This document shows positions 10,533-49,000 of a stretch of 64,000 bases of DNA, piece after piece. Every line of letters starts with the position of its first letter. Position 1 is the first letter of the stretch. The stretch lies in the NCBI RefSeq assembly GCF_030758345.1, contig NZ_JAVAMO010000007.1, positions 137,127-201,126 of the forward strand, in the 5' to 3' direction. Origin of the DNA: Ruegeria sp. 2205SS24-7. GTDB taxonomy: Bacteria; Pseudomonadota; Alphaproteobacteria; Rhodobacterales; Rhodobacteraceae. The translations under genes were made by a program, and so were the position numbers. The notes under the pieces are model-generated. The model worked only from the letters and a program-made list of their open reading frames with translations. It did no database searches and was not told the DNA's origin.

Positions 10533-10535
10533 AAT

Positions 10536-24400: not shown

Positions 24401-27400
24401 AGAGCCCGCAGCCGACCCACCTGCCCCTGACTGCCACGCAACGCGAAATGCGGCTGATGGCGCTCAAGCAACGGGGCGGCGATCGGGCCGAAATGCTTGT
24501 GGGGGAAGTGGCCGGACCGATCGACTCGGACAGGCTGCAGATCGCGTGCAATCGCCTCGTCGAACGGCACGACGTATTGCGCGCGCAAACGATAGACGGT
24601 GATGCGCTGATACTCGGCAGCCAAGGTCCCTGCCTGAGTGCAAACGCGCTGTCTGATCTTGATCACGACTTGCAGGATGGCGACGGAACCGCCTGGATCG
24701 CGGAACTCGCCGGAACGCGGATCGATCCTCAACGGGACCCGCTGCTGGCGTTCGACCTGCTCGATCTCGAAAACGGTCGCGCGCTCGTAGCCTTGCGGGC
24801 TCATCCGCTCATCTGTGACGGTTGGTCCATGGGGGTCATGATCACGGAACTGGCCGCGCTCTATTCGGGCGGCGCGGATCACACGCTAGAACCATCGACC
24901 TCTTTCGGTGATTTTGCAGATTGGGCCGCAAGCGCCAAACCAGACGAAGAGCGTGCAGCGCAGGGATACTGGCGGGAACGTCTGTCTCAAGGCATCGAAC
25001 CGATTGTTCTGCCGATCGACCGGCTGGCGCTTCGGCAAGGCGACAAGGCGGGGCGGCGTCTGCACCGGGTCATCGGCGGCAAGGCGGCAAAGGACGTGCT
25101 GGACCTCAGTGTCTCCCGAAACACCACGCCTTTCGTCGTTCTCCTTTCCGCCTATTCCGTTTTGCTGACACGGCTTTCCGGAGCATCGCGGCTCGCAATT
25201 GCGATCCCCGTCCCCGGTCAGGCCTCGATGGAAGCATCTCGGCTGGTTGGCCAATGCGCGGCCACTTTCCCTCTGGTGATGTCGGTCGATACCCAGGCAA
25301 CGGGCAACGCCCTGCTCGGCCAGGTGAAGCATGGCATCATGGCGATGCTGGATCACCAATGCGTCCGTCCACAGGATGCGATACAGGATGACACTTCCCC
25401 GCCGCCGCTTTCGGTCGGGTTCAATCTGGATCGCGACCCGGGGCAAATCCGGTTTGAGGGTCAGCCCGTCTCGATCCGGCCAGTGCCAATCGGTGACCCC
25501 AAATACGCGCTCAATCTCAATGTCATCACGACGGATGGGCAGTTCCTTCTGGATTTCGACTATGACGCCACGCGGTTGGATACTGGGACGGTGGCCGCCT
25601 GGGCCGACGCCTATTCATCCCTGCTAAGCGATCTGTGCGACAACCCGGAACGCCGCATAGATGACATTGGGCGGCGACCTGTGACCGAAACAGGGCCACT
25701 GCCGGATCTGCCCGCTGCCATGTCGGCGGCGCTCTCCAATGCGCCGGACAGGGTTCTTGCGACCGATGCAGACGGCCAACCCGTGACCGCAGGGTCAATT
25801 GCAACTCAGAACAGCGATGTCATTGCCGCGCTGGCGGACCGCCTGGGGATGCCGGTGCCCAAAGATACGCCGTCACGCGTTGAGGCCATCACCGCCTGGC
25901 AGAATGCCTGCGGGCTGGAGATCGGTGCAACGCTCACGCTGACCGCCGGATTGCCGGTGGTGGAGGCCTTGGCGGCGGCGGTTCTGGGAAAGCTGCACCT
26001 GCGCATCTCTGAGATGCCCGCGACTGGTCAGGCGATACTTCTCCCGCAAGATGCCGTGCGCGCCTGGATTCGCGAATGGGGGCGGCGCAAACCGGTCCGT
26101 TTGATCATCGAGTGCCGGAGTTCGCCTCTAGAGAGCTACCTGCCATCGCTCCAAGCCTCTCTCGCCGAAGGCAGCAGCGTCCAACTGATCCTTCGGCCTC
26201 ATACTGACAGGCAAGCTGCTGGTTATGCTGCGGCCTCCGTTGTGAGCGACATGAGACTGGTGCGCTTTGCGCCGCTGGACGGGCTGGCACTTTCGGTGCT
26301 GAACGACGATGGACAGCCCACGCTCGTGGGTTGCCGAGGTTCCTTGCACGCGGATGACGCGGCACTCGGCGTCACCGCGTCTTTGACCGCGAGTGGAGAG
26401 GTTGTGGCCTTAGCGGAGCCGCTCGAGAGCGCGGATGCTCGTGCGCTGCTGCTCTCCAATCCCGAGGTCGCCCAGGCCGAAGGCCCGTTGGACCGCCTAG
26501 TGGTCACAACGATTCCCGAGGCAATTGTTACGGCTCAGGAACTGGCTGCTGATCTTGCCCGCATGCTGCCGGGACCTTCGCTGCCGCGAAACATATCTCT
26601 TCACCGAGACGGTGCGCGCCACGATAGTTGGCAGGAGAAGTCGTATGAAGGTCCAACCGCCGGAGCATATCTTGAGACTATTCTCGATGTCTTTCGAGAT
26701 CATCTTGACCAGCCGAACCTATCAGCGCAGGACAGCTTCTTCGACTTCGGCGGAACAAGCCTGACCGCGCTGCGCGTCGCTGCCCAGATCGAACGCCGCA
26801 CCGGCCAGCAACTGGACGCCGCGTCCCTGTTCCGTGCACCTACGCCCGCAGGGATAGCCGAAAACCTGGGTGCAGAGTCCTACCCAATTCCAGCAACCGG
26901 CCTCCTGCGCGCACCCGCCTCTCCGGCCCAAAAACGTATGTGGACGCTGTCGCAGGTCGAGGGGCAGGAGGCGTTCTATGTCCTCTCCGGAGCATTCGTC
27001 TTTGACGGGTTGCTTGATCGGGATGCCTTGCAGGCTGCCCTGAACGCTCTTTTTGAACGCCATGGCATTTTGCGCACAGGCTACGATCTGAGCGACGGCG
27101 CCCTTTGGCAAATTATCCGCCCGTCAAAGGCCGTGGAACTGTCCGAACACATGGCCGAAGACGGAGAAGCCGCGCTGGCCCGGCATGTTCAGGAGCTGAC
27201 CGCTGCTCCGTTTGACCTGAGCGCAGGTCGGGTCTTTCGCACCGCATTGCTGTGCATCGACGCTTCGGCGAAATCGCACCATGCGCTGGTTTATGCCGTG
27301 CATCACATCGCCTTTGACGGCTGGTCCGAGGCAGCGCTGATCGCCGACCTGACCGAGCTGTATCAAGCCGCGCTTGGACACCGCGCCGCCGATCTGCCCG

Positions 27401-30400
27401 AACTGAAGCTGCAACATATCGACGCCTGCCTCTGGCAGGACGCGCGCCTGCACGGGCCGGACGGCAGGGCGGCGCTGGATCGCTGGGCCGCGCGTCTGAA
27501 AGACCTGCCGCAGCCGACCGCCCTGCCCCACGACCGCCCGCGCTCAAACCTGCAGAGCTTTGCCGCCGCCCGCTGCGATCTCCGCCTTTCGCGGTCCACG
27601 ACAGCGGGTCTGCGCGATCTGGCGCGGCAGGCGGGAACAACACCCTATCTTGCTGCGCTCGCCGGGCTGAAAGCACTGATCCACCGCTATACAGGGTCGA
27701 ACGATATCACCTTCGGCACGGCACTCACACGCAGGGGGCATCCGGACCTGCTGGGGCAGATCGGGAACTTCGTGAACACCCTGCCTCTCAGGGATCGCCT
27801 GAGCGGTTCGGACAGTTTCCGCACTCTGCTCTGGCGCGTGGCTGACACCGCCGCTGACGCATTTGCGGACGGAGATACGCCCCTTGACGCAATCCTCAAC
27901 CGGATCGGCCAGCCGCGCGACGTGGCACGCGCCCCACTGTTCGATATCCTGGTCAGCGCCGCCGATATCGAGCGGCCTGAGCTTGTCCTCGGGGGCGTGG
28001 CGGGCAGAGCGGTCGATGACCTGATCCCACCTGCGTCGGGTTTCGATCTCTATGTCGAGATCAGTACGGACAAAGAGTGCGCGCTTTTGCGTGTCACTTA
28101 TAATTCCGACCTGTTCGACGAAGACCGTATTGCCCGAATGGGGCGGCATCTGGAAACCCTGCTTGCGGCCTGTATCCGGGACCCCTCGAAACCGATTGCC
28201 CTGATCCCCCTTCTCGACGCGTCGGAAAACGCCGAGGTCACGGCCTATTCGCAATCCCACAAGCCGGAACTCTATGTGTTCGATGACCGGATGGCACTCT
28301 GCCCGGTGGGTATCGAGGGCACGATCTTCGAGACCTGCGCCCGGGACCTGCCGGGTGCCATACCCCATGCGCTTTCGCCATCCGGCTGGCTGCGGGATAC
28401 TGGGCAGCGCGCACAATGGACAACGACCGGACGGCTTGCCTATGCTGAGGTGACCAAGGAGCCGACCCCGGTCACTCCGGCTATGTCGTCGGACGAGACG
28501 ACGAAAACACTGCTGGAAATGTGGCGTCGCTTTCTGCCCTCCGGCGCCGCGCCGACAACCGATGACAGCTTCTTTGCGCTTGGCGGCAATTCTCTTGGCG
28601 CAGTTCAAATCGTTGCACAGGTGCGGGACACCTTCGGTGTGGACCTGCGCGTGAAGGACCTGTTCGAGCGGCCGAGTGTTGGCGCGTTTCAAGGTTTTCT
28701 GGGCACCCTCGCGAAACCGGGCGAACTGACCGGAGAAGCCGAAGAAGACACCTCTGTAACGCTTGCCCCAGCGCAGGAGCGGATGTGGCTGCTGGACAAT
28801 GTGGCGGCTGACAAGTCGGCCTATTGCATGTCGGGCGCCTTCTGGATTGGTGGTCGCCTGGACATGGACCGTTTGCGGCAGGCCCTTCGTGCAGTCGCGC
28901 AACGGCACGAGGCCCTGCGCAGCTTCTTTTCCGAGGCTGACGATGGCACGCCGCATATCAGCATCGCTGCGCAAGTCGAGCCAGCCCTGACGGTCGAGAC
29001 GGCACCGGACGAGGCAACAGCTCTGGCGCGCGCTGCAGAGATGAGCGGGCAAGGTTTCGATATGTCCAGAGCGCCGCTCTGGCGCGTGCACTTCACGCAG
29101 GCCGGAGCCCGCACCCTGCTGACCATCAGCCTGCATCATGCCATCGCCGACGGCTGGTCGGTCGCCCTCTTCCTGCGCGATCTGACCAAGGCCTATCAGG
29201 GCGAGGCTTTGCCTGCCGCCAGCGGCGCTTACCGGGAGCATGCACGGCGCAGCCGGCTCCTGCTCGACAGTCCAGCGGGCGCGGAAAGCCGCGGCTACTG
29301 GCAAGAGACGCTCAGGGACGCACCGCAAGAGATCGCGCTTTTCACTGATCGGCCAAGACCGAGCGTCAAATCCTATCGCGGCGGCGTGGTTCATTCGGAA
29401 CTTGACGCCACAACCGCGCAGGCGCTTCGCGCTCTGGCGACGGCGCAGCGCGGAACGCTTTATCAGGTGTTGATGGCGCTCAGCGCAACGCTGCTGCACC
29501 GCCATTCCGGGCAGAGCGATCTGGTGATCGGTAGCGTCGCCGCTGGCCGCCACAGCACCGAAGAATTCGACCAGATCGGCTGTTTCATCGAAAACTTCGC
29601 GCTGCGCCTCGATCTCGACCCCGAGACAACGTTCGAGACTCTCCTAGCCCAGACTGTCAAAAGGCTGACGGAGGCGCAGGAGCATAGCCGTTATCCGGTG
29701 GAACTGCTCGGCCAGTCGCGCGGGGGCACCGGCCGTGGCGGCAGACTGGGCCTGTTCAACATCATTGTCACGGTCGAGGAATTCACCGACGAGGCCCTGT
29801 CCTTTGACGGGCATCCGGCGCGCACCGCGCAACTGCCCAGCGTGATCTCGCGTGCGGATCTGATCTTCTACCTGCGCCCGTCGGCGAAGGGGATTGCCAT
29901 AGAGATCGAATATGACGCCGATCTGTTCGATGCCGAAACCATCGAACGCATGGCTGAGCATCTCGGTCATTTGGCCGTGGCTGCGGCCAATGCGCCAACC
30001 GACAAGCTCTCCACGCTTCCCCTGATCGGCGCAGAGGAACGCGAAGCGGTCGTCAGCGGATTTAACCAAACCGCCACCGACTACCCGCGAAACAGAAATG
30101 TCGTCGATCTGTTCAGAGAGGTCGCGCAAAACTCGCCGGACGCCATCGCCCTGCGTCACCACACAAACAGCGTGACATACCGGGAGGTCGATCTCTGGTC
30201 CGACCGCATCGCCGCGGGTCTTGTCACACACCATGGCGTCAAGCCCGGCGATCTGGTGGCTTTGATGTCCGATCGTCAGCCTGCCCTGATCGCCGCGATG
30301 CTCGGGGTGCTGAAGGCCGGAGGTACTTATGTACCGATTGACGCCGATTACCCGGCAGAGCGCATTGCAACCCTGCTCGACATTGCCAAACCAAAACTTA

Positions 30401-33400: not shown

Positions 33401-36400
33401 TGCCCCGCGATACCCGCCTGATCGCCGCGATGCTTGGCATTCTGAAGGCGGGCGCGGCTTATGTCCCGGTCGATCCATCCGCGCCGGTCGAACGGGTTGC
33501 AGGGATGCTTGCCGATGCAGAATGCGCCGCGCTGATCACCGATGCGACCGCACCCGGCGGGCGGTGGGGGCTTGCCGACCGCACGCTCGTGCTGGACGAT
33601 CTCTCTGCCCGCGCCGCGACGCCTCCGAATGCTCAGCTAAGGCCCGACGACCTCGCCTATGTGATCTTCACCTCGGGCTCCACGGGGCGGCCCAAGGGCG
33701 TCATGATCGAACACCGGTCGGTCGCGGCGCTCGTCGCGGCGTTGCATCAGACGGTCTATGACGGATTGGAAGGCCAGCAGACCGTCGCGCTGGTCGCACC
33801 GCATATCTTCGACGCGTCGGTTCAGCAGATCTTCGCCGCGCTCTGCGGTGGGCACCGGCTCTTGGTGGTCGATGCCGAAACGCGCCGCGATGGGCGCGAT
33901 CTGATGGATCTTTTTGCACGCGAAGCGGTGACTGTCTCGGACGCGACGCCAAGCCTGCTGTCCCTGCTGCGCAATTTCGGTTTTGCGCGCCGCAACGACC
34001 TGTGCTTGCGCCATATCCTTGTTGGCGGCGAGGCGCTTGCGACGGGGCTTGCCCGCGATATCCTCGAAGCGCCCACCTGCCCGATGCTCAAGCTGACCAA
34101 TGTCTATGGTCCGACCGAAGCCACCGTTGACTGCACCGCGCTGACGCTTGCACACGCCGATCTGTCGGATGACGCGGTTGCAAGTATTGGCAGGCCGCTG
34201 GGTCAGGCGCAGTTGCTCGTGCTTGACTCATATGGTGAACCCGTCCCCGTCGGGACACAGGGTGAGATTCATGTCGGCGGACCCGGGCTGGCGCGCGGGT
34301 ATCTGGACCCGGCTCTGACGCGGGAACGGTTCGTGGAACATCCGGAATTCGACCGCCTCTACCGGACCGGTGATATGGGCCTTTGGGACGAGGATGCAAA
34401 GCTGCACTTCCTTGGGCGTCGCGACGATCAGGTCAAACTGCGCGGCTATCGCATCGAACTGGCCGAGGTCGAGTCCGGCCTGAGCAGGATCAAGGGTGTC
34501 CGCCACGCGGCCTGCATCCTGAGCGGTCAAGGCGAGACCGCACAGCTTCTGGGCTTTGCCCAATGCGCCACGCATGCACCAGCCGACCTGCGCCAGGCTG
34601 CAGCAGAGCATCTGCCGGACTATATGATACCTGCCGATATCATCCGGCTCGACGCTCTGCCGATGACGCCAAGCGGCAAGGTGGACCGTCTCGCTCTGGC
34701 GGCACTGGACCGGCCAAAAAGGCAACATGCCACCCATTCAACCGGCCCCGACACCGATCTCGAACATGCCGTCGCTCAAATCTGGGCGCGGGTCATGGAC
34801 CGCCCGATGGATGACATGCAGGCCGACTTCTTCGCCTGCGGCGGGCATAGCCTCGCCGCAGCGCAGTTGATCAATCTGGTGGAAGAGGCGTTTGCCGTCA
34901 CCGTTTCACTGCGCGCCTTCTTTGCCGAACCGACGCCCGCCGGGCTCTGCGCGCTGATCGAGGCCGCGCCGGATGCGCAGGCGGATCTACCGGCGCAGCA
35001 GGACGGAGACGGTCTGCTTTCACCGGCGCAGTACCGGCTCTGGGCCATCGACCAGATGCATGGGGACAGCGCGGGCTACGCCATGCCCGCCGCGTGGCGC
35101 GTCACCGGCGCATTCGATCCGGATGCCTTTGCGCGCGCAGCGGATATGCTGGTGTCCAGGCACGACGCCTTGCGCACGCGTTTCGAAATGCGCGCGGGCC
35201 GCCCCGTTCAGATCATCGATGCAGCAAGCCACGCAGATATAGCGATGGAGGAAATCGCGCCCTGCGACGACTCCATGGCCGAAGCGCTTGACCGATGCGC
35301 AAAAGAGGTTGCGTGCCCCTTCGATCTGGAAAACGGCCCATTGCTGCGCTTCCGCCTGTGGAGCATAGACGAACATAATCATGTTCTCTTCGTGAACGCG
35401 CATCATATCATCGTGGACGGCCAGTCGCTGGACATGATGGCGAGGGACCTCTGGTCAGCCTACGCATCAATCGCGGCAGGCAAGGCACCGGAACTGGGAC
35501 CCGACGCGCCCTCATTCCAGGACCATGTCGCAAAAATGCGCGCCCGGGCCGACGGGCCAAAAGCGCAATCGGACTTGCGCCGCTGGCAGGAGGTTCTGAC
35601 CCCCCTGCCCCCACCGCTTGATCTGCCGATGGACCAAACAAGGCCCCCGCTGCGCAGCCAGAGCGGCGCATCGCTCGATATCCCGGCGGCACAAAAAACG
35701 CAGGCCACTTTGGCTAAGGTCGCCAAAGCACAAGGCACAACGCCTTTTGCAGTGCTCACCGCTTTGAGCGCTTATGCAATGTATGCCCTCTCCGACCAGC
35801 AGGGCATGTTCATAGGGGTTCCGCTCTTGGGCCGCCCGGATCGGGACAGCCAGTCCGTCATTGGTCTTTGTACCGAGACCGTGCCATTGCGCGTCACGCT
35901 GGACCCGCATCAGACGTTCGGCGCGCTGCTCACACAGGTAAAGAGCAACCTTGCCGAGATGCTGGACCGTCGGGACTGCCCGTTCGACCGGATTGTCGAG
36001 GCGATCAAACCACCCAGCAGGCCGGACCGCTCGATCCTGTTCGACGTGATGGTCAGCTACCGCAGGACCGATCCCGAGGCCGCCCCTTGCGGGCTTGATC
36101 TGACGCCGTTGCCGTTGCCCGTGCAGGGCAGTCAGCTTGATCTGACATTGCTGTTCGCCGAAACGCCCGAGGCGCTGACGCTTTCGCTGCAATATGATGA
36201 TGCCCTGTTCGAGGCAGATCGTATTCGTGGCATCGGCAACTATGTCCTGTCGCTACTTGACCGGATCGCTGCGTTCATCGACCAGCCGATTGCAGCCCTG
36301 CCGCGGCCAGATGTGCGACTGCTGGCGGGACCGGTTGAGACAGCGCCAGCAGCCCTTGCGCCAAGCGGGTCTGCCCCCGGCTCCTGCGATAAGATGCTTG

Positions 36401-39400
36401 ATCTGTGGCGCGATGTTCTCGGTCAGGCCGAACTTGGCCCGGACGACAATTTCTTCGCTGCTGGTGGGCACAGCCTGACCGCAGCACGGCTGGTTCAGAA
36501 GGTCTATGCGGAGCTCGGTGCCGAGATTAGGCTGAGCGACGTGATGCGCAACCCGACCGCCGCCGCCCTTGAGAGACATCTGCAAGAGACGACACCCGAC
36601 CCGATCAACCCGGTAAAGCGCCTGCCGGAGGCTGCCGATTATGCTCTCTCGCCCGCGCAACGCCGCTTTTGGGTGCTTGAACAACTCGAAGGGCAGGAGG
36701 GCTATGGGCTGTTGCCCGGCGTGGTCGAATTGACCGGCGCGCTGGATCAAGAGGCACTGACCAGCGCTATCGACGCCCTGTGCAGCCGCCATGAAGCGCT
36801 GCGCACAGTAATTTTGACGGATGATACAGGCGTGCCACGTCAGCGCATCCTGCCCGACGGCGCAAAGCTCATCACAATAAATCTGAAAGGTTCCGATACC
36901 CCGGAAGCCGAGGCAGAGGCATGGCTAAGCCCGCTTTTGGCACGGCCTTTCGACATCGGGTCCGAAGCCCTCTTCCGCATCGGCCTCGCGCAGATCGGCG
37001 CTAAGCGGTTCCTTCTCGGCTTCTGCCTGCATCACATGATCGCCGACGGGTGGTCCATGGATGTCCTGATCCGCGATCTGTCGATGCTTTATGCCGCCGC
37101 TCGGGGCGACGCGACCGGGCTCCCGCCGCTGAAACGGCAGTACCGTGATTGCGCGGCGCATCAGATCACGCAGGCGGCGAACACTGCCGGTCTGGATTAC
37201 TGGCAGGCCAGGCTCTCCGGTCCCCCGCCCCGCCTGGACCTGCCCACCGACCGGACACGCCCGACGCGCCAGGATGTCAGCGGTGAAGTTATGTCGTTCG
37301 AGCTGGACCCCGCGCAGGCCGAACCGCTCTGGCGCATGGCGGAACAGCACGATACCAGTCTCTTTGTCATCCTCACGGCGGCCTTCCAGACGCTGCTCTA
37401 TCGCTATGCCGGGCAGACGGATCTGACACTCGGCACACCGGTGGCAGGGCGCGACCACCCCGACTACGCCGATCAGGTCGGGTTGTTCCTGAACCAGTTG
37501 GCGCTGCGCGTGGAAATTGACCCACAGGCCGGGTTCGCTACGCTGCTGAAGCGCACCGCAACGACGATACGGGAAGCGCTCGAACATCAGGACACCCCGT
37601 TTGATCTGGTTGTGGAGGCGCTTGACCTGCCGCGCGATCCAGCGCGCAGCGTGCTCTTCGATGCCATGATCGTCATGCAGGACCCGGATCATGCCGAGTT
37701 GACACTCGGCGACGTGCATGCGCAGCGCAAAACGCCGACGGCATCCGTCTCAAAGACCGATCTGACGCTCATTGCCGAACCAAGCGGTGCGGCGGTACGC
37801 CTGCATTTCGAATATGCGACGGCGCTCTTCGACCCTGACACAATTGCGCGGCTGATCGATACATTCGGCAAGATCCTGACCGAGGTAGCGGCCGATCCGG
37901 ACACGCCGCTGGATGCGCTCGAAGTCGCTCCCGCGCACGACCGGCAGTCAATGCTGTCCTGGGGTGGTCTCACGGGTGACCTGCCGCAATCCGACGGAAC
38001 CATTCTGGAGTACATCGCGAAGGCCGCCGCGCGCGCTCCAACCGCTCCGGCCACAAGCGACCGGACCCAAGCCCTGAGCTACGAGACCATCGTGCAACGT
38101 TCCGACCATCTGGCCCGGCAACTGGTCCAACGCGGGGTCGCCCCCGGCGCGAAAGTGGGTATCGAACTGGCTCGAGACGCTGACCTGCCCGCCGTGCTAT
38201 TGGGTGTTCTGAAAGCCGGAGCAGCGTTTGTACCGGTAGACCCTGTGCTCCCCGAGGCACGGTGCGATCTGCTCATTGCCGAGGCGGCTTGCGCGCTGGT
38301 TCTGTCCGGCAAGCCGGATGGAAAACAGCGGATAGATATCGAAATGCTACTGGAAGCGCCGGACACCAAACTGCCGCTGCCCGAAATCACTCCGGACATG
38401 CTGGCCTATGTTCTATTCACGTCCGGCTCGACCGGCAAACCCAAAGGCGTGATGATCGAGCATCGCGCACTTGCCGCGTTTTGCGGGTCCCTGCCGGATA
38501 CCTTCGGGTTCGGCCCCAAGGATCGGATCGCGGCGCTGACGAATATCAGTTTCGACATCTCGATACTCGAATTGCTTGGCGGGCTGACCCTCGGGGCCTG
38601 CGTGACCACCATTGACGGCGATGATGCCGCCGTGCCAGCGCGCACCCTGAAGGCCCTGCAGGAGCAGCGCGCGACAGTGTTGCAGGCAACGCCGACCCGG
38701 CTGGCCCTTCTGATGGACGAAGCCGCAAGCAACGGACCGGATGTGTTCGCACAAGGAACCGCGCTGCGCGCCGTGCTCACCGGCGGCGAGACCGTGCCGC
38801 AGCACCTGCGGGAGCGTTTGGCGCTGCTTGAGCACCTGAATGTCTACGAGGTCTACGGCCCCACCGAAACAACGATCTGGACCTGCGCCCGACCGGTCAC
38901 GGGCTCGGCCGCCGCCGATCTCGGTCGGCCCCTGCCCGGCGAAGGCCTCGCAGTCCTCTCCCCCGAAGGCGCATTGCAACCAATCAACGCTGCGGGAGAG
39001 ATCACTATATTCGGCGCGGGTCTGGCACGGGGGTATCTGGACGATCCCGAACGGTCCGCTCAGACCTTTCCCGCCGCTGGTTCGCCGATTGTTGGCAGAC
39101 GCTACCGCACCGGCGACCGCGCCCGTTGGAGATCGGATGGCCGGCTGGAATTTCTGGGCCGCACCGACAGCCAGATTAAGCTCAGGGGACACCGTATCGA
39201 ACTCGGAGAGGTGGAGGCCGTTTTGTCAGTGCAGCCCGATGTCCTTCAGGCTGCGGTCGAAGTGCGGGGCGCGGATACTGACGCGATGTTGGTCGCGCAT
39301 GTGACAAGCCGCGCCTTCGACAGACAGGCGCTGCTCGCAGTCTTGCGTAAGACGCTGCCCCCCGCGGCAGTGCCGGGCCGTGTGGTGATGCATGACGCTC

Positions 39401-41124
39401 TGCCGCTGCTGCCCTCCGGCAAGATCGACCGGCGCGCGCTCGCGCAGATGGCCCTGCCGGAACCGGCGCAATTGGAAAAACCCACGCGCGAGGGCGCCTA
39501 TAATGCGGCCGAGGCCGAGATCGCGACCGTATTCGCCGACCTGCTCAAACTGAAATCCATCGACCCCGAAAGCAGCTTCTTCAACCTGGGCGGGCAGAGC
39601 CTCATGGCGGCGCAGGCCGTGCGACAACTGCGTGACAGGCTGGGTGTCGGGATCGATCTGGGTGATATTTTCGCGGCTCCGACGGTACGCTCGCTTGCCG
39701 AAACCCTGCAGACGCGCGCTCAGGCAGACTGGCCGCCGCTGGTCGCCTCGAAAGATGCCGATGCGTGTCCTCTGGCCCATGCGCAGCGCCGCATCTGGGC
39801 GGCGGAACAACTGTCGAGAGTACCCGGGGCCTACATCATCCACGCCGCGATGGAGATCAAGGGCAGGTTACGGGTCCGCGCACTCAAGAGCGCGTTTGAT
39901 CAGGTTATCGCCCGGCATGGTGCGCTCAGGACAGCTTTTGTGACCGGCATCGACGGGCCGCGCCAGATCGTTCATGACGCAGTGCCCTTCAAGCTTGGGC
40001 GGGATCGCGCCCGGGATGCTCGCGAAATTTCCAAGCTTCTGGACCATGACGCCTCCCACCCCTTCGATCTGTCCCAAGCACCGCTCTTGCGGGCACGCCT
40101 TATCGATACCGGCAAGTCGGTTTCCATCCTGTCAATGGCGCTGCACCATACCGTCGCGGATGGCCGGTCGCTCGAACTCTTCATGCGCGATCTTGAAACA
40201 GCCTATCAGGCCGCAGCCGCAAAGCGCGAATGCCCGCTGCCCGCGCCGCCCCTTCAATTCACGGACTTCGCCAAGTGGGAAAGCCAGGTTCTGGAGGCGC
40301 CGTCGATGCAGCAAGACCGCGACTTCTGGCGTACCGCCCTGTCCGATCTCCCGGCCCCGTTCGACCTGCCCATCGGTGCACCGCGTCCAAAGCGGATAGA
40401 GATGGAGGGCGCGACCATCCGCGCGCATCTGGACGCCGATTGCGCCGCGGCGCTTCGCGCATTTTCCGCTGCAGAGTCGAGCACGCTGTTTTCCGTATTT
40501 CTGGCCGCGGTGACCGCGATGGTGCATCGGCTGACCGGTCGCGAAGACATGGTCATCGGCACCGTTACGGAAAACCGCAACCTGGCGGCGCTCGACGGAA
40601 TGATCGGCTGTTTCGTCAATGTCCTGCCCCTGCGGATGACTCTGGCGCAGGACATCACGGTCGCCGGGCTGGTGCGCGAGGCGCGCGAGGTTGCGGCCCG
40701 GTCGCTGCGTCACGGTCATGTTCCCTTTGAAGAGATCGTCCGCCTGTCTCAGGCCCCCGCGACGCCCGACCGATCGCCGCTCTTCGACATTGCGGTGACT
40801 TGGAACGACCTGGATCACACCGCGCGGAGGGACTTTGCCGGACTGCCCCTCACCGATGTCAGCCCGACGCCCGGCTTTGCCAAATACGACATGCTGATCG
40901 TCTTCTCGCCCAATGCCGAGGGCGGCATCGATTGCGCCATCGAGCACCGCCGGGACCTCTACAGCCCTGAGAGTATCGAAGAAATGTGGAACTGGCTGAG
41001 TCAGATTCTGGCCGAAATGGTATCGGCGCCCGATCTTGCAATCATTGATCTGGAATTTGGCGCAGAGGACAGCGCCAGCTTCGAACCCGACACCACCGAC
41101 ATCGTGAGCATACTGGATATCTGA
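18475..41124 (+). CDS. Giant hybrid PKS-NRPS (7549 aa). Domain order: KS-AT-cMT-ACP-AMT; C1-[degenerate A remnant]-PCP1; C2-[short A remnant]-PCP2; C3-A3-PCP3; C4-A4-PCP4; C5-PCP5 (no A); C6-A6-PCP6; C7.
   Basis: KS: [61 protein letters not shown]. cMT motif I: [28 protein letters not shown]. PLP aminotransferase: [25 protein letters not shown] and [16 protein letters not shown]. Seven C domains, six with HHxxxDG ([60 protein letters not shown]) and one variant [10 protein letters not shown]. Three full A domains with A3 FTSGSTGxPKG, A7 YRTGD, A8 GRxDxQ(L/V)K(I/L)RGxRIE and A10 GK(L/V/I)DR. Six PCPs: GGTSL, GGNSL, GGHSL x3, GGQSL. Confidence 0.9.
   Translation: [7549 protein letters not shown]
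21470..22340 (+). other. PKS C-methyltransferase (cMT) domain inside gene 2, between AT and ACP.
   Basis: SAM-binding motif I [16 protein letters not shown] at ~21844-21879. Post-I acidic residue region FTDISDGF. Motif II/III region [14 protein letters not shown] ... [11 protein letters not shown]. Confidence 0.75.
23020..24350 (+). other. PLP-dependent class-III aminotransferase (AMT) domain inside gene 2, of the MycA/ItuA type that converts beta-ketoacyl-ACP to beta-aminoacyl-ACP.
   Basis: Glutamate-1-semialdehyde aminotransferase-like motifs: [43 protein letters not shown], and the PLP-lysine context [11 protein letters not shown]. It is preceded by a Pro/Ala-rich ~100 aa linker (22690-22990). 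Confidence 0.8.
24799..24828 (+). other. Non-canonical active-site motif [10 protein letters not shown] (HPxxxDG) in condensation domain C1. The second, catalytic His of HHxxxDG is replaced by Pro.
   Basis: Codons gct cat ccg ctc atc tgt gac ggt tgg tcc at 24799-24828, in frame with the gene start at 18475. The other six C domains in the same protein keep HHxxxDG. Confidence 0.7.
25690..26650 (+). other. ~320 aa degenerate adenylation-domain remnant between C1 and PCP1. A3, A7, A8 and the A10 lysine are all absent.
   Basis: The region has A-subdomain-like spacing ([26 protein letters not shown] where an A10 ...LPxYMVP...GKxDR would sit). It contains no T/SSGSTGxPKG, no Y(R/K)TGD, no GRxDxQVKIRGxRIE and no GK.DR. 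The length is ~320 aa, against ~520 aa for the intact A domains of the same protein. Confidence 0.6.
28225..28480 (+). other. ~85 aa A-domain remnant between C2 and PCP2. An internal deletion has fused the A-domain N-terminus to an A5-A7-like stretch.
   Basis: [14 protein letters not shown], which is an A-domain start of the kind that follows a C domain, runs directly into [23 protein letters not shown]...[21 protein letters not shown]. That stretch resembles GELxIGGxGLARGY...[11 protein letters not shown]. PCP2 (FFALGGNSL) follows. Confidence 0.55.
36300..36452 (+). other. C5-to-PCP5 junction with no adenylation domain. A ~45 aa linker connects them directly.
   Basis: The C5 C-terminal region ...[41 protein letters not shown] is followed immediately by [58 protein letters not shown] (PCP5). 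Confidence 0.7.
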
Positions 41125-41130
41125 GACCAA

Positions 41131-44100
41131 ATGACTTCGCATCACCTTCAAACTGCCACGCCCGCCGGAACCAGCCGCTATACAACGCGCAGCTTCGAAG
41201 AGCATCGCCGCTTCTGGCAGGCCCGCGCGGATGAATTCGGCGTGCCGTTTCGCCTGTCCTGCCTGCTTGGCCTGAACGCTCTTGTGCCGGGCGAGGCCGC
41301 CCATGAGCTTGTGTTTTGCCCAGCGGCACAAGCCGTCCTCGCGCGGATTTCAAAAGGCGCTGCTCTGCCCCAGTTTGTGGTGACCACGGCGGCGCTCTCG
41401 CAAGCACTGTCGACCCATCTGGAAGAAGACAGGGTGGTCATGAGAACCCCCGGACTGATCGCGGGCGACGGCCTGCCCGACGGTCAGGATACCGTCGCGC
41501 TCGCGCTTCCCTCCAAGGTTGAGGGGACGGTACGGGACCATTTGTCGACCGCAAATACGCGCATAACGACAAGCTATAAGTACCAGAACTGGCCCGCTGA
41601 CGCGCTGCTCTCCAACGCCGCGCATCTGTCCAGCGATATTTTTCTGACCGCCCCGGGGCTTCATTTTCCGCCGCAGGGCACTGGTGACGCCGCCCTGCTG
41701 ATCGAGATCACGACCGGCACGGCAGTGAAACTGCGGCTTTCAAGCCCTGCGGGAACGCTGCCGGGAAGTTACCTGCGCGCGCTTGGGGCCCTGACCGAAC
41801 ATCTCATCCGTCAGTTTTCCGACACCTCGCTGGCTTTGGCCGATCTGAGCCTCATGCCGGACCACGAGGCCGCGCAACCCATTCTCAGGGGACCCGATCT
41901 GGACGGCAGCCCGGACGAAACGCTTGTCAGCCTGTTTTCGCAGGCGGTTGCCGATCATGGGCCGCGAACTGCGCTGGTGACGGGTGATGAAACCATCAGC
42001 TATGATGAACTGGCCAGGCGCGCAGGCGCAGTCCGGGCGTATCTGGCGGAGCAAGAGATCGCACCGGGCGCAGTCGTCGGCCTTTTTGTCGACCGGAACC
42101 CGCACTGGATTGCGGGGATGCTGGGCATCATGGCACATGGGGCGGTCTACCTGCCGCTCGATCCCGATCAACCCGAGTCACGGATAGCGGATATCCTCGA
42201 ACAAGCCTGCCCCCGAGCGCTGTTGACGGCCTGCGCAGCACCGCACCGCTGGACCGATGAGGCCGCGCAGATCAACGAGATCAGGCTTTCAATGCCCGAT
42301 CCTTTCGCTTCCAGGCCCGGACCGGAAGACCTCGCCTATCTTCTGTTCACCTCCGGCTCCACGGGCAAGCCGAAAGGCGTCAAGATCGCCCATCATGGCT
42401 TCACGGTGATGATCCGGGACCAGATCAAGCAACTCGAAATACGCCCCGCCGACAGCGTCGCGCAGATCGCTGCGGCAACCTTTGACGCCTCGCTGTCCGA
42501 GATTTTCATGGCGCTGGCGAGCGGCGCGCGGCTGGCGCTGCTTTCTGCCGAGACGCTGCGCGCGCCGGACCAGTTGCGCGAGAAGTTCGCGCAGCTTGAT
42601 GTCAACGTCGCGACCTTCACACCCCGCTTGCTCGAAGCTCTGAATGGCGCGCCCCTGCCTACGCTGCGCGCGCTTCTGACCGCCGGGGATGTGGCCGCAC
42701 CTGCCCTTATCCGGCCCTACGCAAAGGATTGCAGCGTCTTCAACGCCTATGGCCCCACGGAATGCTCGGTTTGCGCCTCCATGCACAAGGTGGACCCGAC
42801 CGCTGAGGGCCTTCAAACACTGCCCATCGGCAAACCGATCGCGGGCAGTGAGGTCCATGTCTGCGACCCGCTGGGCCGACCGCTGCCTCCGGGTCTGCCG
42901 GGAGAGATCGTGGTGACCGGTCCCGGCGTCGCGCGGGGCTATCTGGGCCGGAATCCGGACACCCCACCTTTCGGGCGCAACAAGACGTCCGGCGCGCGCA
43001 GCTACGCGACGGGGGATTTTGGCGTATACGACTCGAATGATGATCTGGTCTATCTCGGTCGCCGCGACGGGCAGATCAAGCTGCGCGGATACCGTGTGGA
43101 ACGGGGCGACATCGAGGCCGCTCTGACCGCTCATCCGTCGGTCGGGCAAGCCCATGTCAAAGCGCCCGGTGAGGGCGAGCCGCTGCTCGCCTATGCCACC
43201 CGCCGGTACGCCATGGAAATCTGGCCGTCGATTGCCGAGTTCTTTGTCTACGACACGCTGGCCTATGGCGCGATGGCAGGCGACACGCGGCGGAACGACA
43301 GCTACCGCGCCGCAATGGAGCGGCAGGTTGACGGCAAGGTGGTGCTTGAAATCGGCCCGGGGGCCGAGGCGGTTCTGACCCGCATGTGCGTCGAGGCGGG
43401 CGCACGCAAGGTCTACTCGGTCGAAATCAGCCCCGAGACGGCGGAGCGCGCACGCGCGCGCATCGCGGCAGCAGGGATGCAGGACAGGGTCGAGATCATC
43501 ACCGGCGACATCATGAGCGTCGAACTGCCCGAACCCGCCGACATCCTTGTTGCCGAGATCGTGGGCGGCATCGGCGGGTCCGAGGCTGCCGCCTATCTCA
43601 TCAATCACGCCCACGGCCTCATGCGCACGCCGGAATGTCAGATTCCCACGCAAAGCGTGACAAGACTGGCGGGCGTCGATCTGAGCGGGGTGACCGAAAA
43701 TGCGGGCTTCGCCCCCGCCGCAGCCCCTTATGTCGACAGCATATTCAAGCAGGTGGGCCGCCCGTTCGATTTGCGGCTGTGCCTGAAAAACCTCCCCCCC
43801 GATCGGCTGTTGACCGGCCATGACGTGCTTGAGGATCTCGACTTTCGCGCACCCATGGCGCTGGAGAACCGCCACGCGATCCGCCTGCCCGTCACAGCAT
43901 CAGGCCGTATCGACGGCCTGCTCGCATGGCTTCATCTGGTGGTCGATGCGGAACACCCAGAGGAAGCGGTTGACATTCTCGACAACCCGTCAAGCTGGCT
44001 GCCGGTGATCCTGCCGCTCGATACGCCACTGGTGGGGCTGGCGCCCGGTGACGTTCTCGAAGGAACCGTCACGCGCACCCTCTCCGCCAACGGGCGCAAT

Positions 44101-46008
44101 CCCGATTTTCACATCGAGGGCATCTGCCGCCATGGCGACGGTCGCTCGGACCCCTTCCGCTGCGCCGCGCCGCATATCGCAGAGGGCTTCCGCACGACCG
44201 AACTGCATCAATCGGTCTTTGCACCCGACGCAACGGCGCGGGTCGCCCCCGCTGCGACCCCCGACCAGCTGCGCAACTGGATGGCCGCGCGCCTGCCCGA
44301 CTATATGCGCCCGGCCGAAGTGATCCTTCTAGACCACCTGCCGCTGACGACAAGCGGCAAGATCGACACTGCCGCTCTGCCAGGCCCGGCGGACAAAGAC
44401 AGCGTCCCCGCGCGCAACGACATGGAAGCCGCGATCCTGAGCGTCTGGCAATCGGTCCTTGACACCAAAAACATCGGCGTTACATCGGAATTCCTCGCGC
44501 TCGGCGGCGATTCAATCTCCGCGATCCAGATCGCGGCCCGCCTGGGGGCCGATGGGATACAGACGACAGCCACAGACATCCTGAGCGAAGGGACGGTGGA
44601 GCGACTGGCACAGATCGCCACCCGTAGCTCTGCATCATCCGGCGCAGAGCAAGAACGGGTTGCGGGGCCATCAGATCCGCTCCCGGCGCAAAGCTGGTTT
44701 TTCTCGTCCTTCCCGACCAATCGCGCGCATTTCAATCAGGCGATACGCCTGCGTCATACGGGCCGCGCCGACCGGACGGCGATCGAGGATGCGCTTGCGG
44801 CATTGGCCGCACATCATGATGCGTTGCGCACCCGCTTCGATCCGGCGGGCCGCAGTTCGCAGATCGAGATCGGAGAAGGTGGCAACCGGGTCCCGGTCAC
44901 CGAAATCGACGCGCGCCACGCTGAGATCGAGGCGGCGTTGATCACGCTGCACAAGGACATAGCTCCGATAGAGGGTAAGGTTCTTGCGGCGCTGCTTATC
45001 CGGGGTGCAGCGGCGGATGACATTGTCATCGCGGCACATCACATCGCGGTCGACTGGGTCTCTTGGGGAATCCTCATTTCGGATTTCAACCGGGCATATT
45101 CAGCCGCAACCAAAGGCATGCCCATCACCTTCGATCCCAAAACCGCTTCGGTACCCGCATGGGCGCGAGACGTGACCGAGATCACCCCAAAGCTGGCGAA
45201 CCGCGCGCAACCCTACTGGCACGAAGTGGCGCACCGACCTGGGCGCGCCCTGACCCCGGCCGATCCGGGCCTCTACAGTGACGCGCAGAACGTCGCGCTG
45301 ACGCTACCGACCGACCTGGCCCGAGCCGTGACCGGCACGGCGAACGAGGCCTATTCGACCCGCCCGCAGGAACTGATCCTGACGGCGCTGGTTCATGCCA
45401 TCGAGCAGGAATGGGGCAACGGGGCGACCACGCTGCTGCTGGAGGGCCATGGCCGCGAACCGGCGCTCAGCACGCACGACGTATCCCGCACCGTTGGATG
45501 GTTCACGACGCTCTACCCTGTTGTTCTTAACTCACCCGCTGGAGGTGCCGACCGCCGGATAAAGGGCCTAAAAGAGGCCCTGCGAGCAGTCCCCGACAAC
45601 GGCGCGAGCTATCTGCCGCTTGCCCAGGCCCCCAATGCCCACCCGGCGATGGCCAATATGGTGCCCGATGTCAGCTTCAACTTCCTCGGCGGGGGTGCCG
45701 CGACGACCGACGGGGCATGGTCGCCGGTTGACGCGCCGGTCGGGCCGGTCGTCTCGGGTCAGCATCGCCGCATCTGCACGCTGGACGTCGCGGTCGTCGC
45801 CCATGGTGCCGACGTCACGCTGACCCTGACACGAAACGGCAAGGCTATGTCGGCAGAGGTGATAACGCGGCTCCTGACCGCAATCGAAGCGGATCTGCGC
45901 GTCTTGTGCGATCACTGCCAGTCGCTGGGCACGACCGAACTGACCGCCGCCGACGTCGCCATGTCCGGGCTTTCGCAGGATGAGCTTGAGGCGCTGCTGG
46001 ACGACTGA
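41131..46008 (+). CDS. Stand-alone NRPS module (1625 aa). Domain order: N-terminally truncated C-domain remnant - A domain interrupted between A8 and A9/A10 by a PRMT-like SAM methyltransferase - PCP - epimerization (E) domain.
   Basis: The N-terminal 250 aa align only to the C-terminal lobe of C domains ([14 protein letters not shown]...[35 protein letters not shown]) and have no HHxxxDG. A domain: [55 protein letters not shown]. Inserted MT. A10: [33 protein letters not shown]. E domain: [15 protein letters not shown] and the EGHGRE race motif LLLEGHGRE. Confidence 0.85.
   Translation: [1625 protein letters not shown]
43200..44260 (+). other. Protein-arginine-N-methyltransferase (PRMT)-like class I SAM methyltransferase fold, including the beta-barrel, inserted in the gene 3 A domain.
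   Basis: [115 protein letters not shown] parallels PRMT1 [68 protein letters not shown]...KVDIIISEWMGY. A downstream [11 protein letters not shown] sits where the PRMT THW loop would be. Confidence 0.65.
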
Positions 46009-46057: not shown

Positions 46058-49000
46058 ATGATCCGCAAGGAACAAATCGCAGATATCTATCCGCTCTCGC
46101 CGATGCAGGAGGCGATGGTAGTCGCGGGTTTGCGCGACCCTGACTCGACAGCTTACGTGCAGCAGCTGCGCATCACTTTGAATCGCGATCTGAATCAGGA
46201 CACGTTCAAAGCAGCGTGGCAAGAGCTTGTCGACCGGCACACGATCCTGCGCACCGCATTCATCCTGCGCAATACGCCCCGCTTTCTTCAGGCGGTGCTG
46301 AAGCAGGTCGAGCCGGACATCGCGACACAAGACCTGACGCAGCTTACTGAGGAGGAGCAGGCAGCGCGGATCGAACAGATCTGCCTGTCCGAACGTATAC
46401 GGGGCTTTGACCTGACCTCAGGGCCACCTTCGCGTATCCGGCTCATCCGACGAGGCCCTCAAAGCCACGTCATGATCTGGACGCACCATCACGTGCTGCT
46501 GGATGGCTGGTGTCTGGGTCTGATCGCCGAGGAATTCTTCCAGCTCTATGCCGCGCTGCGAGACGGGCATGCCCCGGGTCTCGGACCCGCCCGGCCCTAT
46601 AGCAGCTTCGTGAAATGGGTTCAGGACCGGCCGGTCGAACAGTCCCTGCCCTACTGGAAGGACTATCTGGCGGGTTACGAGCCGATGTCACGGCTGCCGA
46701 CCGGCGACACGCCGCACCCCGCCGCTGGAATGATCGACGAGGAATGCACGCTCGACCACAGGATTTTTGAGGCAGTCAACGCATTGGCCGCGCGTCTGAG
46801 AGTGACGAAGGGCGCGCTGCTCCATGCAGCCTGGGGCGTCTTTCTCGCCAAGTACTCCGATACCGACGACGCGCTTTTCACGTCGGTGATCGCCAATCGG
46901 CCGCCCAGCCTGCCCGGCGCCGAACAGATGATTGGCCTTCTGATCAACGCCGTGCCCGTACGCGTTCGGTTAGGCGCCGAGGATAGCTTTGCCCAACTGG
47001 CCCAACAGGTCCAAGCCGACATGCTGGCGCGGGCGGAGCATGAGCATGTGCCCCTCGCCACCATCCAGGGCGTGGCACCACAGGCAGCGCAGGTTTTTGA
47101 TACCCTGCTGATCGTCCAGAACTACCCGCTTGGCGGGGTGGCATCAGACGGCCTATCAGGCGGGTTGCAGGCCATCCCCGACACACTGACCGAAGAGACC
47201 CACGCACCGCTCACGCTGAACGTTTCGCTGGCGGATGGCATTCACCTGCACCTGTCAGCACGCCCCGAACACCACGATGCGGCCATGGCGTCACAAATGA
47301 TCCGGCATTTCGCAGGCCTGCTGGAACGGCTGATTGATCGGGCCGATGATCCGCTAATCACACAGACGCCGCTTGGACATACGGAGGCGTTGTCTTTGTC
47401 CGCGCCGCCCGACACCCAGCCCATACCGGCAAGCATGGCCGAATTGCTTGCTGGCCAGGTTACCAAGACACCCGATGCCACTGCGTTGACCGCAGGTGCA
47501 AAGACTTTGAGCTATGCCGAGCTCTCACACCGCGCAGATCGTCTGGCCGCACATCTGAGCGCATCGCTCGGGCTGCGCAGGGGCGACAAGGTCGGTCTGA
47601 TGCTGCCGCGCGGCTCATGGCTCGTAACGGCGATGCTTGCCCTGATCCGAATGGGCGTCGCCTATGTCCCGCTTGGGCCGCGCGATCCGGCAGCGAGAAC
47701 GGGCTTCGTGCTCATAGATGCGGGGGTGACAGCACTTATCACTGCGGCGGATGTGGCGCTGCCCGACGGGTTCGACGGCAAGATAATCCGCCTCGGAGAG
47801 GACACATCGCTGCCCGACGCGGCATCCCATGGCGCGACGCCCGCACCCGACGATCTGATCTACATCGCCTATACCTCCGGCTCGACCGGCCAGCCCAAGG
47901 GCGTAGAGATTGCTCACCGGAATGTCGCGGCCTTCACTGAAACACTGCCCGCAACGCTTGGCCTCAGGGCGGGCCAACGCATTCTCGGGCTGACCACACA
48001 TACTTTCGACATATCGTTTCTGGAACTGATCAGCAGCCTTGCGCTTGGCCTTGAGGTGGTTCTCGCCGACGACGAAACCGCCGCCGATCCGATTGCCATT
48101 TGCGATCTGATCAAAACGCAGAAGATCGACGTCCTGCAAACCACACCCTCACGCCTGCGCACGCTTGTCGAGGTCGGCGGCTGGAAGGCGCTGGAAGACC
48201 TGAACACCATCCTCGTCGGAGGTGAGGCGCTGCCGTCGGACCTGTTCGACGGTCTCCGCACCCTGCCAGAGACGCGTTCCATCAATGTCTATGGTCCGAC
48301 CGAAACCACCATCTGGTCGACCGCGCAGGACCTGTCGGACGGGCTGCTGTGCATTGGTCGGCCCTTTCCCGGCGAAGCCGCCTTTGTCTCAGGGCGAAAC
48401 GGCCAGGTGATGCCTGTCGGCGCGGTCGGTGAGCTATGTATCACCGGCGCAGGTCTCGGGCGCGGATACCACCAGCGCCCTGACCTGACTGCGGAACGTT
48501 TTGCAGATCATCCGTTTGTGCCCGCAGCAAAATGCTACCGCACCGGTGACCTCGCGCGGCGGCGCACTGATGGCCGTTTCGAAGTGCTGGGCCGTCTGGA
48601 TGATCAGGTAAAACTGCGCGGCCACCGGATCGAGCTGGGCGAGATCGAGTCCACTCTGCGCGGCCTGCACGGCATCGAGGCGGCGGTTGTGCTGCCCGAG
48701 CGCGGCGCAAGCGGTGAGACCAAGGCGCTGACCGCCTATGTGGTTTGCAAGACTGGCACTGCCCCGGACGGGATACTTGGCCAACTTGCATCTTTGCTGC
48801 CCGCCCACATGATCCCGGGCGCGCTTGTACCGCTGGACCGGTTGCCGCTGATGCCGAGCGGCAAGATCGACCGCAGCGCCCTGCGGCAGTTCGAAGCGAC
48901 CGCGCCCGTCACAAGGGACGTGACCGACCTTCCACGGGATGAGACCGAGCAAGGCATCGCGCGCATCATCGCCGAGGTGTTGGACCGGCCGGTTTTCGGC

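Follow-up and report, generated by a model that had tools for sequence, protein, structure and literature searches.

In the 64,000-nucleotide (nt) window of the Ruegeria sp. 2205SS24-7 genome analysed here (RefSeq assembly GCF_030758345.1, contig NZ_JAVAMO010000007.1, positions 137,127 to 201,126 of the forward strand; positions below are those of the window), the nonribosomal peptide synthetase (NRPS) gene orf3 encodes an adenylation (A) domain that is interrupted by a methyltransferase (M) domain with the predicted fold of a protein arginine methyltransferase (PRMT). Judged by insertion site, size, motifs, and homology, its interrupted A domain belongs to family 2b and its M domain to type III, an already known architecture that reveals no new tailoring logic. 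We propose that this M domain would O-methylate a carrier-bound tyrosine, which would subsequently be epimerised and enter a lipopeptide as O-methyl-D-tyrosine. From the sequence and by analogy with related pathways, we put the probability of this reading at roughly 0.78.

Seven families of bacterial interrupted A domains and six types of M domain have been distinguished (Lundy, Mori & Garneau-Tsodikova 2020, PMC8341866). In family 2b, ordered A8-Ms(O,Tyr)-A9, the M domain is of type III and 350 +/- 10 amino acids (aa) long; the family counted 79 members in 2020 and is recognised by four motifs: V(V/L)(E/D)(I/V)GxGxxA (motif i), GDdxxdx(L/I)PEx(A/V)(D/E)xC(V/I)SEI(V/I/F)GxI (motif ii), (I/V)FxxxxxxFDLR (motif iii), and WLPV(F/Y)(F/L)Pd (motif iv) (PMC8341866). 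In the orf3 insert, motifs i and iii were matched exactly (Table 1). Motif ii agreed at 21 of 23 positions, with Cys replaced by Leu and Ser by Ala, and motif iv at seven of eight, so that neither fits its strict pattern; these two strict patterns were passed by 33 and 39 of 75 relatives, respectively. With the A8 motif at aa 643-657 and the A9 motif at aa 1055-1061, the insert of about 345 aa therefore lies between A8 and A9, and both this a8-a9 site and the size fit the values published for family 2b. The other M-domain types considered for the insert (I, II, and IV) were rejected, as their respective motifs were absent. Neither the type I motifs Dx(V/I)dd(N/S)S(V/I)dQYFP and NE(L/M)x(K/R/Q)(F/Y/H)RY nor the type II motifs DVGx(N/H)xG(L/M)F(S/T)L, FT(Y/F)YPxx(S/T)x(L/M)SG, and (I/V)DLLKdD(V/A)ExxE were found by motif search of orf3; as a positive control, the shorter type I core (N/S)S(V/I)xQY was found as NSVAQY in a DidJ-like protein of Tistrella. 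The original prediction, a reading of the bare DNA that preceded this analysis, had placed the insert between A8 and A9 at the same coordinates, which Pfam and the motif patterns confirm, and had set it apart from the usual backbone N-methyltransferases, in agreement with the missing type I motifs. Its further suggestions, that an NRPS of such an architecture might be undescribed and that the tailoring logic would be unusual, were not supported; family 2b and the type III M domain are published (PMC8341866).

The evidence from sequence comparison and structure prediction also indicates that the insert is a complete PRMT-type fold, consisting of a Rossmann domain and a beta-barrel, with a likeness far beyond chance. 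A phmmer search against PDB sequences returned PRMT6 first (2e-14), followed by PRMT9, PRMT7, and CARM1, and the alignment to PRMT2 covered query residues 12-298. A family profile built from 27 members matched PRMT6 at 5e-28 and PRMT3 over profile positions 47-319, into the beta-barrel, with the PRMT matches spanning positions 44-319; NRPS chains topped this list, as some alignment rows include A9-A10-PCP (PCP, peptidyl carrier protein), and were disregarded. An AlphaFold2 model made with the same family alignment reached a predicted local distance difference test score of 88.6 and a predicted template modelling score of 0.87, being weak only at the extreme N-terminus and at residues 128-133, the Gly-rich double-E loop. 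Foldseek placed type I PRMTs throughout its top 50 PDB matches (PRMT6, CARM1, PRMT2, PRMT1, and plant PRMT4.2), with a best E value of 5e-23 and template modelling scores of 0.63-0.75 over 324-358 aligned columns, and the model has one helix (model residues 181-192) at the position of the PRMT dimerisation arm. The HMMER alignment to PRMT6 pairs motif I as well as the Arg of the pre-motif-I helix and the post-I Glu, and it places the first Glu of the double-E loop (AEIVGGIGGSE, aa 808-818) on the Glu of PRMT6 'SEWMG'; the second Glu follows nine residues on. PRMT1 shows the same double-E spacing with E144 and E153. The His of the PRMT THW loop is absent from orf3, where the site reads SSW with only the Trp kept; in relatives the residues before this Trp are HC, TA, YS, YC, and others, and only the Trp is conserved.

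The PDB sequence search, the profile, and the AlphaFold2 and Foldseek comparison thus bear out the PRMT-like fold that had been proposed for the insert, and every peptide motif quoted in its support (FFVYDTLAYG...SYRAAM, VLEIGPGAE, AGARKVYSVE, ADILVAEIVGGIGGSE, and SSW, the latter at the THW-loop position) is present in the translation. In the hidden Markov model (HMM) comparison that had been suggested, the Pfam scores for PRMT5 (21.7 bits, cutoff 22.9) and PrmA (16, cutoff 22) stayed below threshold. Methyltransf_25 scored 27.6 bits, and an NCBIfam scan of the insert gave no PRMT match, only weak partial ones; as a whole, the Pfam and NCBIfam matches are generic class I methyltransferase matches and uninformative for family placement. 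In the published description of type III, no motifs beyond the S-adenosylmethionine (SAM) site match known O-methyltransferases, and arginine methyltransferases are unmentioned (PMC8341866). The O-methyltransferase domain of LynB3/LynB5 from the lyngbyapeptin pathway has been described as about 30% similar to arginine methyltransferases and was assigned to Tyr O-methylation (PMC10127204), and our literature search on 'PRMT-like' and NRPS found no paper applying that term to an NRPS domain.

The proposed function follows from relatives whose pathways are known. Among the type III representatives, ThxA2 module 6 (thaxteramide), DidJ (didemnin), and VatN (vatiamide), the last two with an added type I N-methyltransferase, are all tied to O-methylated tyrosine in their products (PMC8341866). 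Overall, the domain is known from the didemnin, cryptophycin, vatiamide, thaxteramide, and lyngbyapeptin synthetases. Two anchor records were found by tblastn of a plasmid collection. The M domain of a DidJ-like protein on plasmid pTM3 of Tistrella mobilis KA081020-065 is 45.7% identical to that of orf3 over 93% of the query; this open reading frame (ORF) maps as C-A-(M-III)-(type I N-MT, NSVAQY)-A9/A10-PCP-TE (C, condensation; M-III, type III M; N-MT, N-methyltransferase; TE, thioesterase), the layout published for DidJ (PMC8341866), and KA081020-065 is the strain in which didA-didJ was elucidated (PMC9964501). The second anchor, on pNsp_c of Nostoc sp. ATCC 53789, has a CrpC-like NRPS whose M domain is 40.7% identical to that of orf3, which carries all four type III motifs in their strict form, and which we mapped as C-A(M-III)-PCP-E (E, epimerisation). 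Magarvey et al. (2006) are reported to have described this domain order for CrpC itself. In the Nostoc locus, a polyketide synthase (PKS), the 1943-aa NRPS, a large synthetase, a P450, a TauD-type dioxygenase, PanD, and an FAD-dependent oxidoreductase follow each other, an order that matches crpB-crpH and fits the published crpA-H of this strain with its two PKS, two NRPS, and tailoring genes (PMC6835634). Unit B of cryptophycin is 3-chloro-O-methyl-D-tyrosine and has no N-methyl group (PMC6835634). From the PKS upstream of the NRPS to the crpH-like gene, no separate annotated methyltransferase gene was found and therefore, by elimination, the embedded type III M domain would be the O-methyltransferase there. 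It is because such pathway-linked relatives correlate with O-methyl-tyrosine products that we favour O-methylation by orf3. The double-E loop is retained in both anchors, as SEIVGPIGGSE in the CrpC-like domain and as SEIIGPIGGCE in the DidJ-like one, and yet both belong to O-methyl-Tyr pathways; the loop is therefore no evidence of a guanidino substrate.

We read the substrate codes of the cluster by aligning its A domains to the GrsA Phe-A segment, a procedure that recovered the GrsA code DAWTIAAICK as control. The interrupted A domain of orf3 has DASTLAAVCK, which is a Tyr-type code as predicted from sequence, one conservative change away from the classical Tyr code DASTVAAVCK of the Stachelhaus tables, and which contains no acidic pocket residue other than the universal Asp235. 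Identical codes occur in two of the relatives (L039 and L041). The original prediction had proposed to check whether Arg or a basic residue is predicted here, and had suggested that the M domain could place a methyl group on a side-chain nitrogen, guanidino or other, of the amino acid that its own module activates, an unusual tailoring logic for a PRMT-type enzyme. Such N-methylation would be in keeping with the PRMT-like fold, the pre-motif-I helix, motif I, the post-I element, and the E-x8-E loop; the Joint Genome Institute (JGI) names standalone relatives 'type I protein arginine methyltransferase', in Streptomyces one of these is found two genes away from a gene of the arginine deiminase family, and in vitro assays of type III M domains are absent (PMC8341866). 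The Tyr-type code of orf3 nevertheless speaks against it, as do the codes of the relatives read, which are mostly of Tyr, Phe, or hydroxyphenylglycine (Hpg) type and in no case canonical for Arg. Furthermore, the DidJ- and CrpC-like domains give O-methyl-Tyr pathways with the same double-E loop (PMC8341866, PMC6835634), and the THW-loop His is missing. Methylation of a side-chain nitrogen is highly improbable.

Mechanistically, interrupted A domains activate their substrate, load it, and then methylate it (PMC8341866). Going by its code, the A domain of orf3 would adenylate L-tyrosine and load it onto the downstream PCP. For SAM binding, the embedded M domain would rely on its PRMT-type motif I together with the Arg in the pre-motif-I helix and the post-I Glu, and, by comparison with the pathway-linked homologues, it would transfer the methyl group to the phenolic oxygen of Tyr-S-PCP; speculatively, one Glu of the double-E loop might serve as base or hydrogen-bond acceptor for the phenol. 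The E domain, as its motifs and the CrpC-like layout suggest, would then convert the residue to the D form, which the first C domain of orf4 would condense.

The wider family agrees with an aromatic substrate. By scanning one genome per species, we confirmed at least 536 relatives in reference genomes. The matches listed come from Proteobacteria, Cyanobacteria (Moorena producens 3L, Nostoc, and Microcystis), Myxococcota (Sorangium), Acidobacteriota, Gemmatimonadota, Bacteroidota, and Chloroflexota, and the closest of them to the orf3 M domain is 62% identical. Public assemblies contained no exact copy of the orf3 protein. Host A codes were taken from 80 loci kept of these relatives, about 70 of which could be read; the A8 pattern proved too strict and missed many genuine embedded cases, and the statistic was made both ways. 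The code DAST(I/V/L)AAVC was found 31 times, DAAT(I/V)AAVC six times, and the Phe-like DAWT.. three times, and DGTITAEV. and DALVSGC., each found once, are near the other two classical Tyr codes. Six host codes were Hpg-like, DI(F/W)H(F/Y)GL.., and came from Gemmatimonadota / Longimicrobium (L054, L062, L068, L072, L078, and L080), which suggests that this type III subgroup forms O-methyl-Hpg. A few codes were unassigned, including DVEELGVVT, DVLQIGHID, and DVLDTGMIT with extra acidic residues, and several were unreadable; no canonical Arg code was met among the approximately 70 host A domains read. On these codes, the common denominator of the hosts is a para-hydroxy aromatic side chain.

As hosts with Phe-like, DAAT.., and Hpg-like (DIFHxGL..) codes exist, the type III family is therefore not limited to Tyr, and the orf3 domain might be active on another atom or substrate, for example a beta-hydroxylated or ring-modified Tyr, another para-substituted Phe, or a second methylation site. 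Its uncommon residues next to the double-E loop and within motif iv (see below) and a Cupin_8/JmjC-like gene, a possible hydroxylase, at 1916-2902 on the minus strand could be taken in the same sense. The orf3 code, however, departs from the classical Tyr code by a single conservative change and recurs unaltered in L039 and L041, and genes for the biosynthesis of para-amino-Phe or Hpg were not seen among the window ORFs scanned, all of which makes another atom or substrate quite unlikely.

Standalone homologues of about 360 aa form a large clade in Actinomycetota and soil metagenomes; they are 33-39% identical over their full length and keep the double-E loop. In Streptomyces sp. F2 pFRL4 (L083, 6060-10017), the standalone gene belongs to a run of genes on one strand that also includes a gene of the arginine deiminase family (DDAH-like in size), a cation:proton antiporter, and a nitroreductase. 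From this context, the standalone clade may handle guanidino compounds. A further variant was found in Methylobacter tundripaludum SV96 (L010) and in L050, where, within aa ~1-2400 of the ORF, an AMP-binding domain and an SDR/KR-like segment precede the type III M domain, with an A10-like remnant, a PCP, and finally KS-AT after it (KR, ketoreductase; KS, ketosynthase; AT, acyltransferase). Read by eye, this looks like an A domain interrupted by KR and the type III M domain, which would lie outside the seven families of PMC8341866.

Several points weigh against tyrosine O-methylation by orf3. The function of type III M domains has been inferred from products and knockouts, with no isolated assay (PMC8341866), and O-methylation therefore rests on correlation; the Tyr-type code is as such a prediction; and the PDB search found no close relative with a solved structure, the best match reaching only 2e-14. 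In addition, the M domain carries substitutions peculiar to its lineage. Across 75 near-full-length relatives, 68 columns are at least 90% conserved, 63 of which are kept by orf3, including both Glu, GxGxxA, FDLR, and WLP. The five deviations are A763S, C806L, S808A, G819A, and L831M, none of which is shared by three orthologs described below (L001-L003). C806L, S808A, and G819A flank the double-E loop (window 43546-43587, aa 806-819), with G819A just past it, and I960 (window 44008-44010) replaces the aromatic residue of motif iv. Of the relatives, 71 of 73 have the motif ii Cys, all 73 have Ser ahead of the first Glu, 73 of 75 have the double-E loop, and all 70 have an aromatic fifth residue in motif iv (Phe or Tyr in 69 and Trp in one); positions 806, 808, and 819 and the motif iv aromatic are 96-100% invariant in the 75 relatives. 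As near-invariant residues have changed, at 806, 808, and 819 in a way not seen in L001-L003, activity or specificity could be altered.

One consequence might be that the M domain is inactive or weakened and retained as a structural insert, with plain D-tyrosine incorporated instead. The unshared changes at such invariant sites around the double-E loop, the lost motif iv aromatic, and the number of deviations (five, compared with a family median of two) would all fit. The same count reaches four in the DidJ-like domain of an active pathway and nine in the most divergent member, however, and the orf3 domain has an intact frame, the conserved columns mentioned above, and all SAM-binding motifs. 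The five substitutions are all conservative, with Cys giving way to a hydrophobic residue and Ser and Gly to Ala at the sites around the loop; the standalone clade normally has Ala ahead of the first Glu, and the structure model is confident domain-wide. When orf3 was compared with its L003 ortholog, the M domain scored 430 bits over 345 aa and the A core 326 bits over 407 aa, giving the M domain the highest bits per residue of the orf3 domains. Because the M domain is the best conserved one compared with L003, and because its changes are conservative and within the family range, we rate decay or loss of activity as unlikely, but kinetics or specificity may be altered. A shift of the orf3 copy to another nucleophile, regiochemistry, or substrate than those of its family also seems rather improbable, and O-methylation of tyrosine remains the reading that we prefer.

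The features of orf3 and of the adjoining C domains are collected in Table 1. Within the A core, the Pfam AMP-binding match spans aa 270-605, and NCBIfam TIGR01733 carries the domain on to aa 676. The C-terminal domain shows the E signatures HHIAVDWVSW, EGHGRE, RTVGWFT, and FNFLG, and its comparison with the last domain of the CrpC-like protein gave 147.9 bits, an ordinary C-domain query 35 bits. Another observation concerns the start of orf3, which begins with a C-lobe remnant although a full C domain already closes orf2. A Pfam search of aa 1-265 gave no family match; a weak phmmer match to C-domain positions 219-327 was obtained, and the HHxxxDG motif is absent. As a query, this region scored 61-82 bits in the orthologous genes of L001-L003, and because of this conservation it is probably functional, e.g., in docking.

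Table 1 Features of orf3 and of the adjoining C domains, in window positions
Feature	Position	Strand	Residues and details	Basis
orf3, NRPS gene	41131..46008	+	intact, 1625 aa; C-lobe remnant - A(M-III) - PCP - E	ORF list, translation, Pfam, domain mapping
N-terminal ~265 aa, C-domain C-terminal-lobe remnant	41131..41925	+	aa 1-265	
A-domain core A1-A8	41938..43158	+	aa 270-676	Pfam AMP-binding 9.2e-71, TIGR01733 1.7e-101
A8 motif	43057..43101	+	aa 643-657; GRRDGQIKLRGYRVE	regular expression
Embedded type III M domain (Ms(O,Tyr))	43201..44235	+	aa 691-1035, ~345 aa	PRMT similarity, type III motifs, DidJ-/CrpC-like identity
Type III motif i / SAM-binding motif I	43342..43371	+	aa 738-747; VLEIGPGAEA (GxGxxA), exact	
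Type III motif ii and double-E loop	43504..43584	+	GDIMSVELPEPADILVAEIVGGIGGSE; E809/E818 (E-x8-E)	motif search, PRMT6 alignment
Type III motif iii	43741..43776	+	aa 871-882; IFKQVGRPFDLR, exact	
Type III motif iv	43996..44019	+	WLPVILPL, at PRMT THW-loop position; Ile instead of Phe/Tyr	
A-domain C-terminal part	44239..44400	+	A9 LPDYMRP aa 1055-1061, A10 SGKID aa 1075	Pfam AMP-binding_C aa 1040-1077, regular expression
PCP domain	44416..44625	+	aa 1096-1165	Pfam PP-binding aa 1101-1161
Epimerisation domain	44683..45942	+	aa 1185-1604	Pfam Condensation match, E-type motifs
Complete C domain ending orf2	39766..41067	+	aa 7098-7531; HHTVADG	domain mapping; same split in L001-L003
First C domain of orf4	46088..47374	+	aa ~37-465; subtype distinct from other C domains	domain mapping

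The gene cluster around orf3, which extends over some 46 kb (about 11945-57415), provides the setting for this module. Its orf1 encodes FAAL-ACP-KS-AT-KR-ACP (FAAL, fatty acyl-AMP ligase; ACP, acyl carrier protein), orf2 begins with KS-AT-MT-ACP-aminotransferase-C (MT, methyltransferase) and has A codes DAYWLGGTFK, Gln, and Gly, and orf4 has Gly, DVHSLGLVDK, and DAATIAAVCK modules followed by E-TE. Judging from these domains, the FAAL-PKS-aminotransferase-NRPS line should make a beta-amino-fatty-acid lipopeptide. The C domain at the end of orf2 presumably serves the orf3 module in trans. The N-terminal query of orf4 scored 298-311 bits in L002/L003, compared with 51-63 bits for an ordinary C query, and we presume that its first C domain accepts a D-configured residue. 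The orf2/orf3/orf4 junction, including the remnant, also occurs in Rhodopila sp., Acidisphaera sp. S103, and alphaproteobacterium BAL199 (L001-L003), whose M domains are 60-62% identical to that of orf3; these clusters are orthologous to the one in the window. The A(M-III)-PCP-E unit recurs in several further genomes.

Other features of the window were recorded alongside. Its GC content is 61.9%. Two C-PCP units of orf2 lack an A domain of their own (26911-28689 and 35011-36585, aa 2813-3405 and 5513-6037), and a stretch of about 330-340 aa between a C domain and a PCP (25660-26680) gave no Pfam match, which suggests trans-loading or non-canonical modules. The genes overlap by 4 nt at orf1/orf2 (18475-18478) and by 29 nt at orf3/orf4 (45980-46008), consistent with translational coupling in one operon. 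Upstream of the synthetases, genes on the minus strand at 1916-11300 encode a tripartite efflux system made up of outer-membrane factor, RND pump, and membrane-fusion protein, together with a type II thioesterase, an Sfp-type phosphopantetheinyl transferase, and the Cupin_8/JmjC-like protein mentioned above. At the edge of the cluster, an RVT_1 reverse transcriptase ORF (27-1310, plus strand) possibly belongs to a group II intron or retron-type element.

For genome mining, these results give a residue prediction, O-methyl-D-tyrosine, for an uncharacterised beta-amino-fatty-acid lipopeptide. More generally, the type III M domain appears, by profile and predicted fold, as an under-appreciated PRMT homologue in which the double-E loop is nearly universal among relatives. 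Type III M domains would have retained a guanidinium-binding loop although their presumed methyl acceptor became a phenol oxygen, and the family could serve as a natural system for the retuning of a PRMT scaffold from N- to O-methylation.

Compared with known systems, orf3 is closest in plan to family 2b, exemplified by ThxA2 module 6, with which it has in common the a8-a9 site, the M-domain size, GxGxxA instead of GxGxG, and a Tyr-type host A domain. It differs by the Cys to Leu and Ser to Ala changes of motif ii and by Ile in place of Phe/Tyr in motif iv, differences that refer to the published family 2b consensus rather than to the ThxA2 sequence. The CrpC-like protein has an identical A(M-III)-PCP-E layout and, unlike orf3, its own complete N-terminal C domain, whereas orf3 retains only the remnant of about 265 aa and has its C domain on the preceding protein; no halogenase was found among the window ORFs scanned. 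DidJ, VatN, and LynB3/LynB5 belong to family 5b, A8-M(III)-M(I)-A9, in which Tyr is the substrate and a type III M domain occupies the same site as in orf3. These modules add a type I backbone N-methyltransferase directly after it and yield N,O-dimethyl-Tyr, whereas orf3 is without type I motifs and a single methylation is therefore expected; moreover, DidJ ends in a TE domain and orf3 in an E domain.

Beyond the NRPS, the eukaryotic type I PRMTs (PRMT6, PRMT1, PRMT2, and CARM1) share their whole-domain fold with the orf3 M domain, as well as motif I and the post-I Glu, a pre-motif-I helix with D..R(T/N)..Y, the THW-loop Trp, and a double-E loop of the form E-x8-E. Identity between them is about 20%, the THW His is absent from orf3, and, whereas PRMTs are free homodimers, the orf3 domain sits in cis inside an A domain; its predicted target is the phenol oxygen of a carrier-bound amino acid, that of PRMTs a protein guanidinium. 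Finally, the type I N-methyltransferase interruptions, as in TioS module 4 and the cyclosporin/enniatin type, occupy the same a8-a9 loop and are likewise class I SAM-dependent methyltransferases, but they are unrelated to the orf3 M domain, with other motifs and another accessory region in place of the PRMT beta-barrel.

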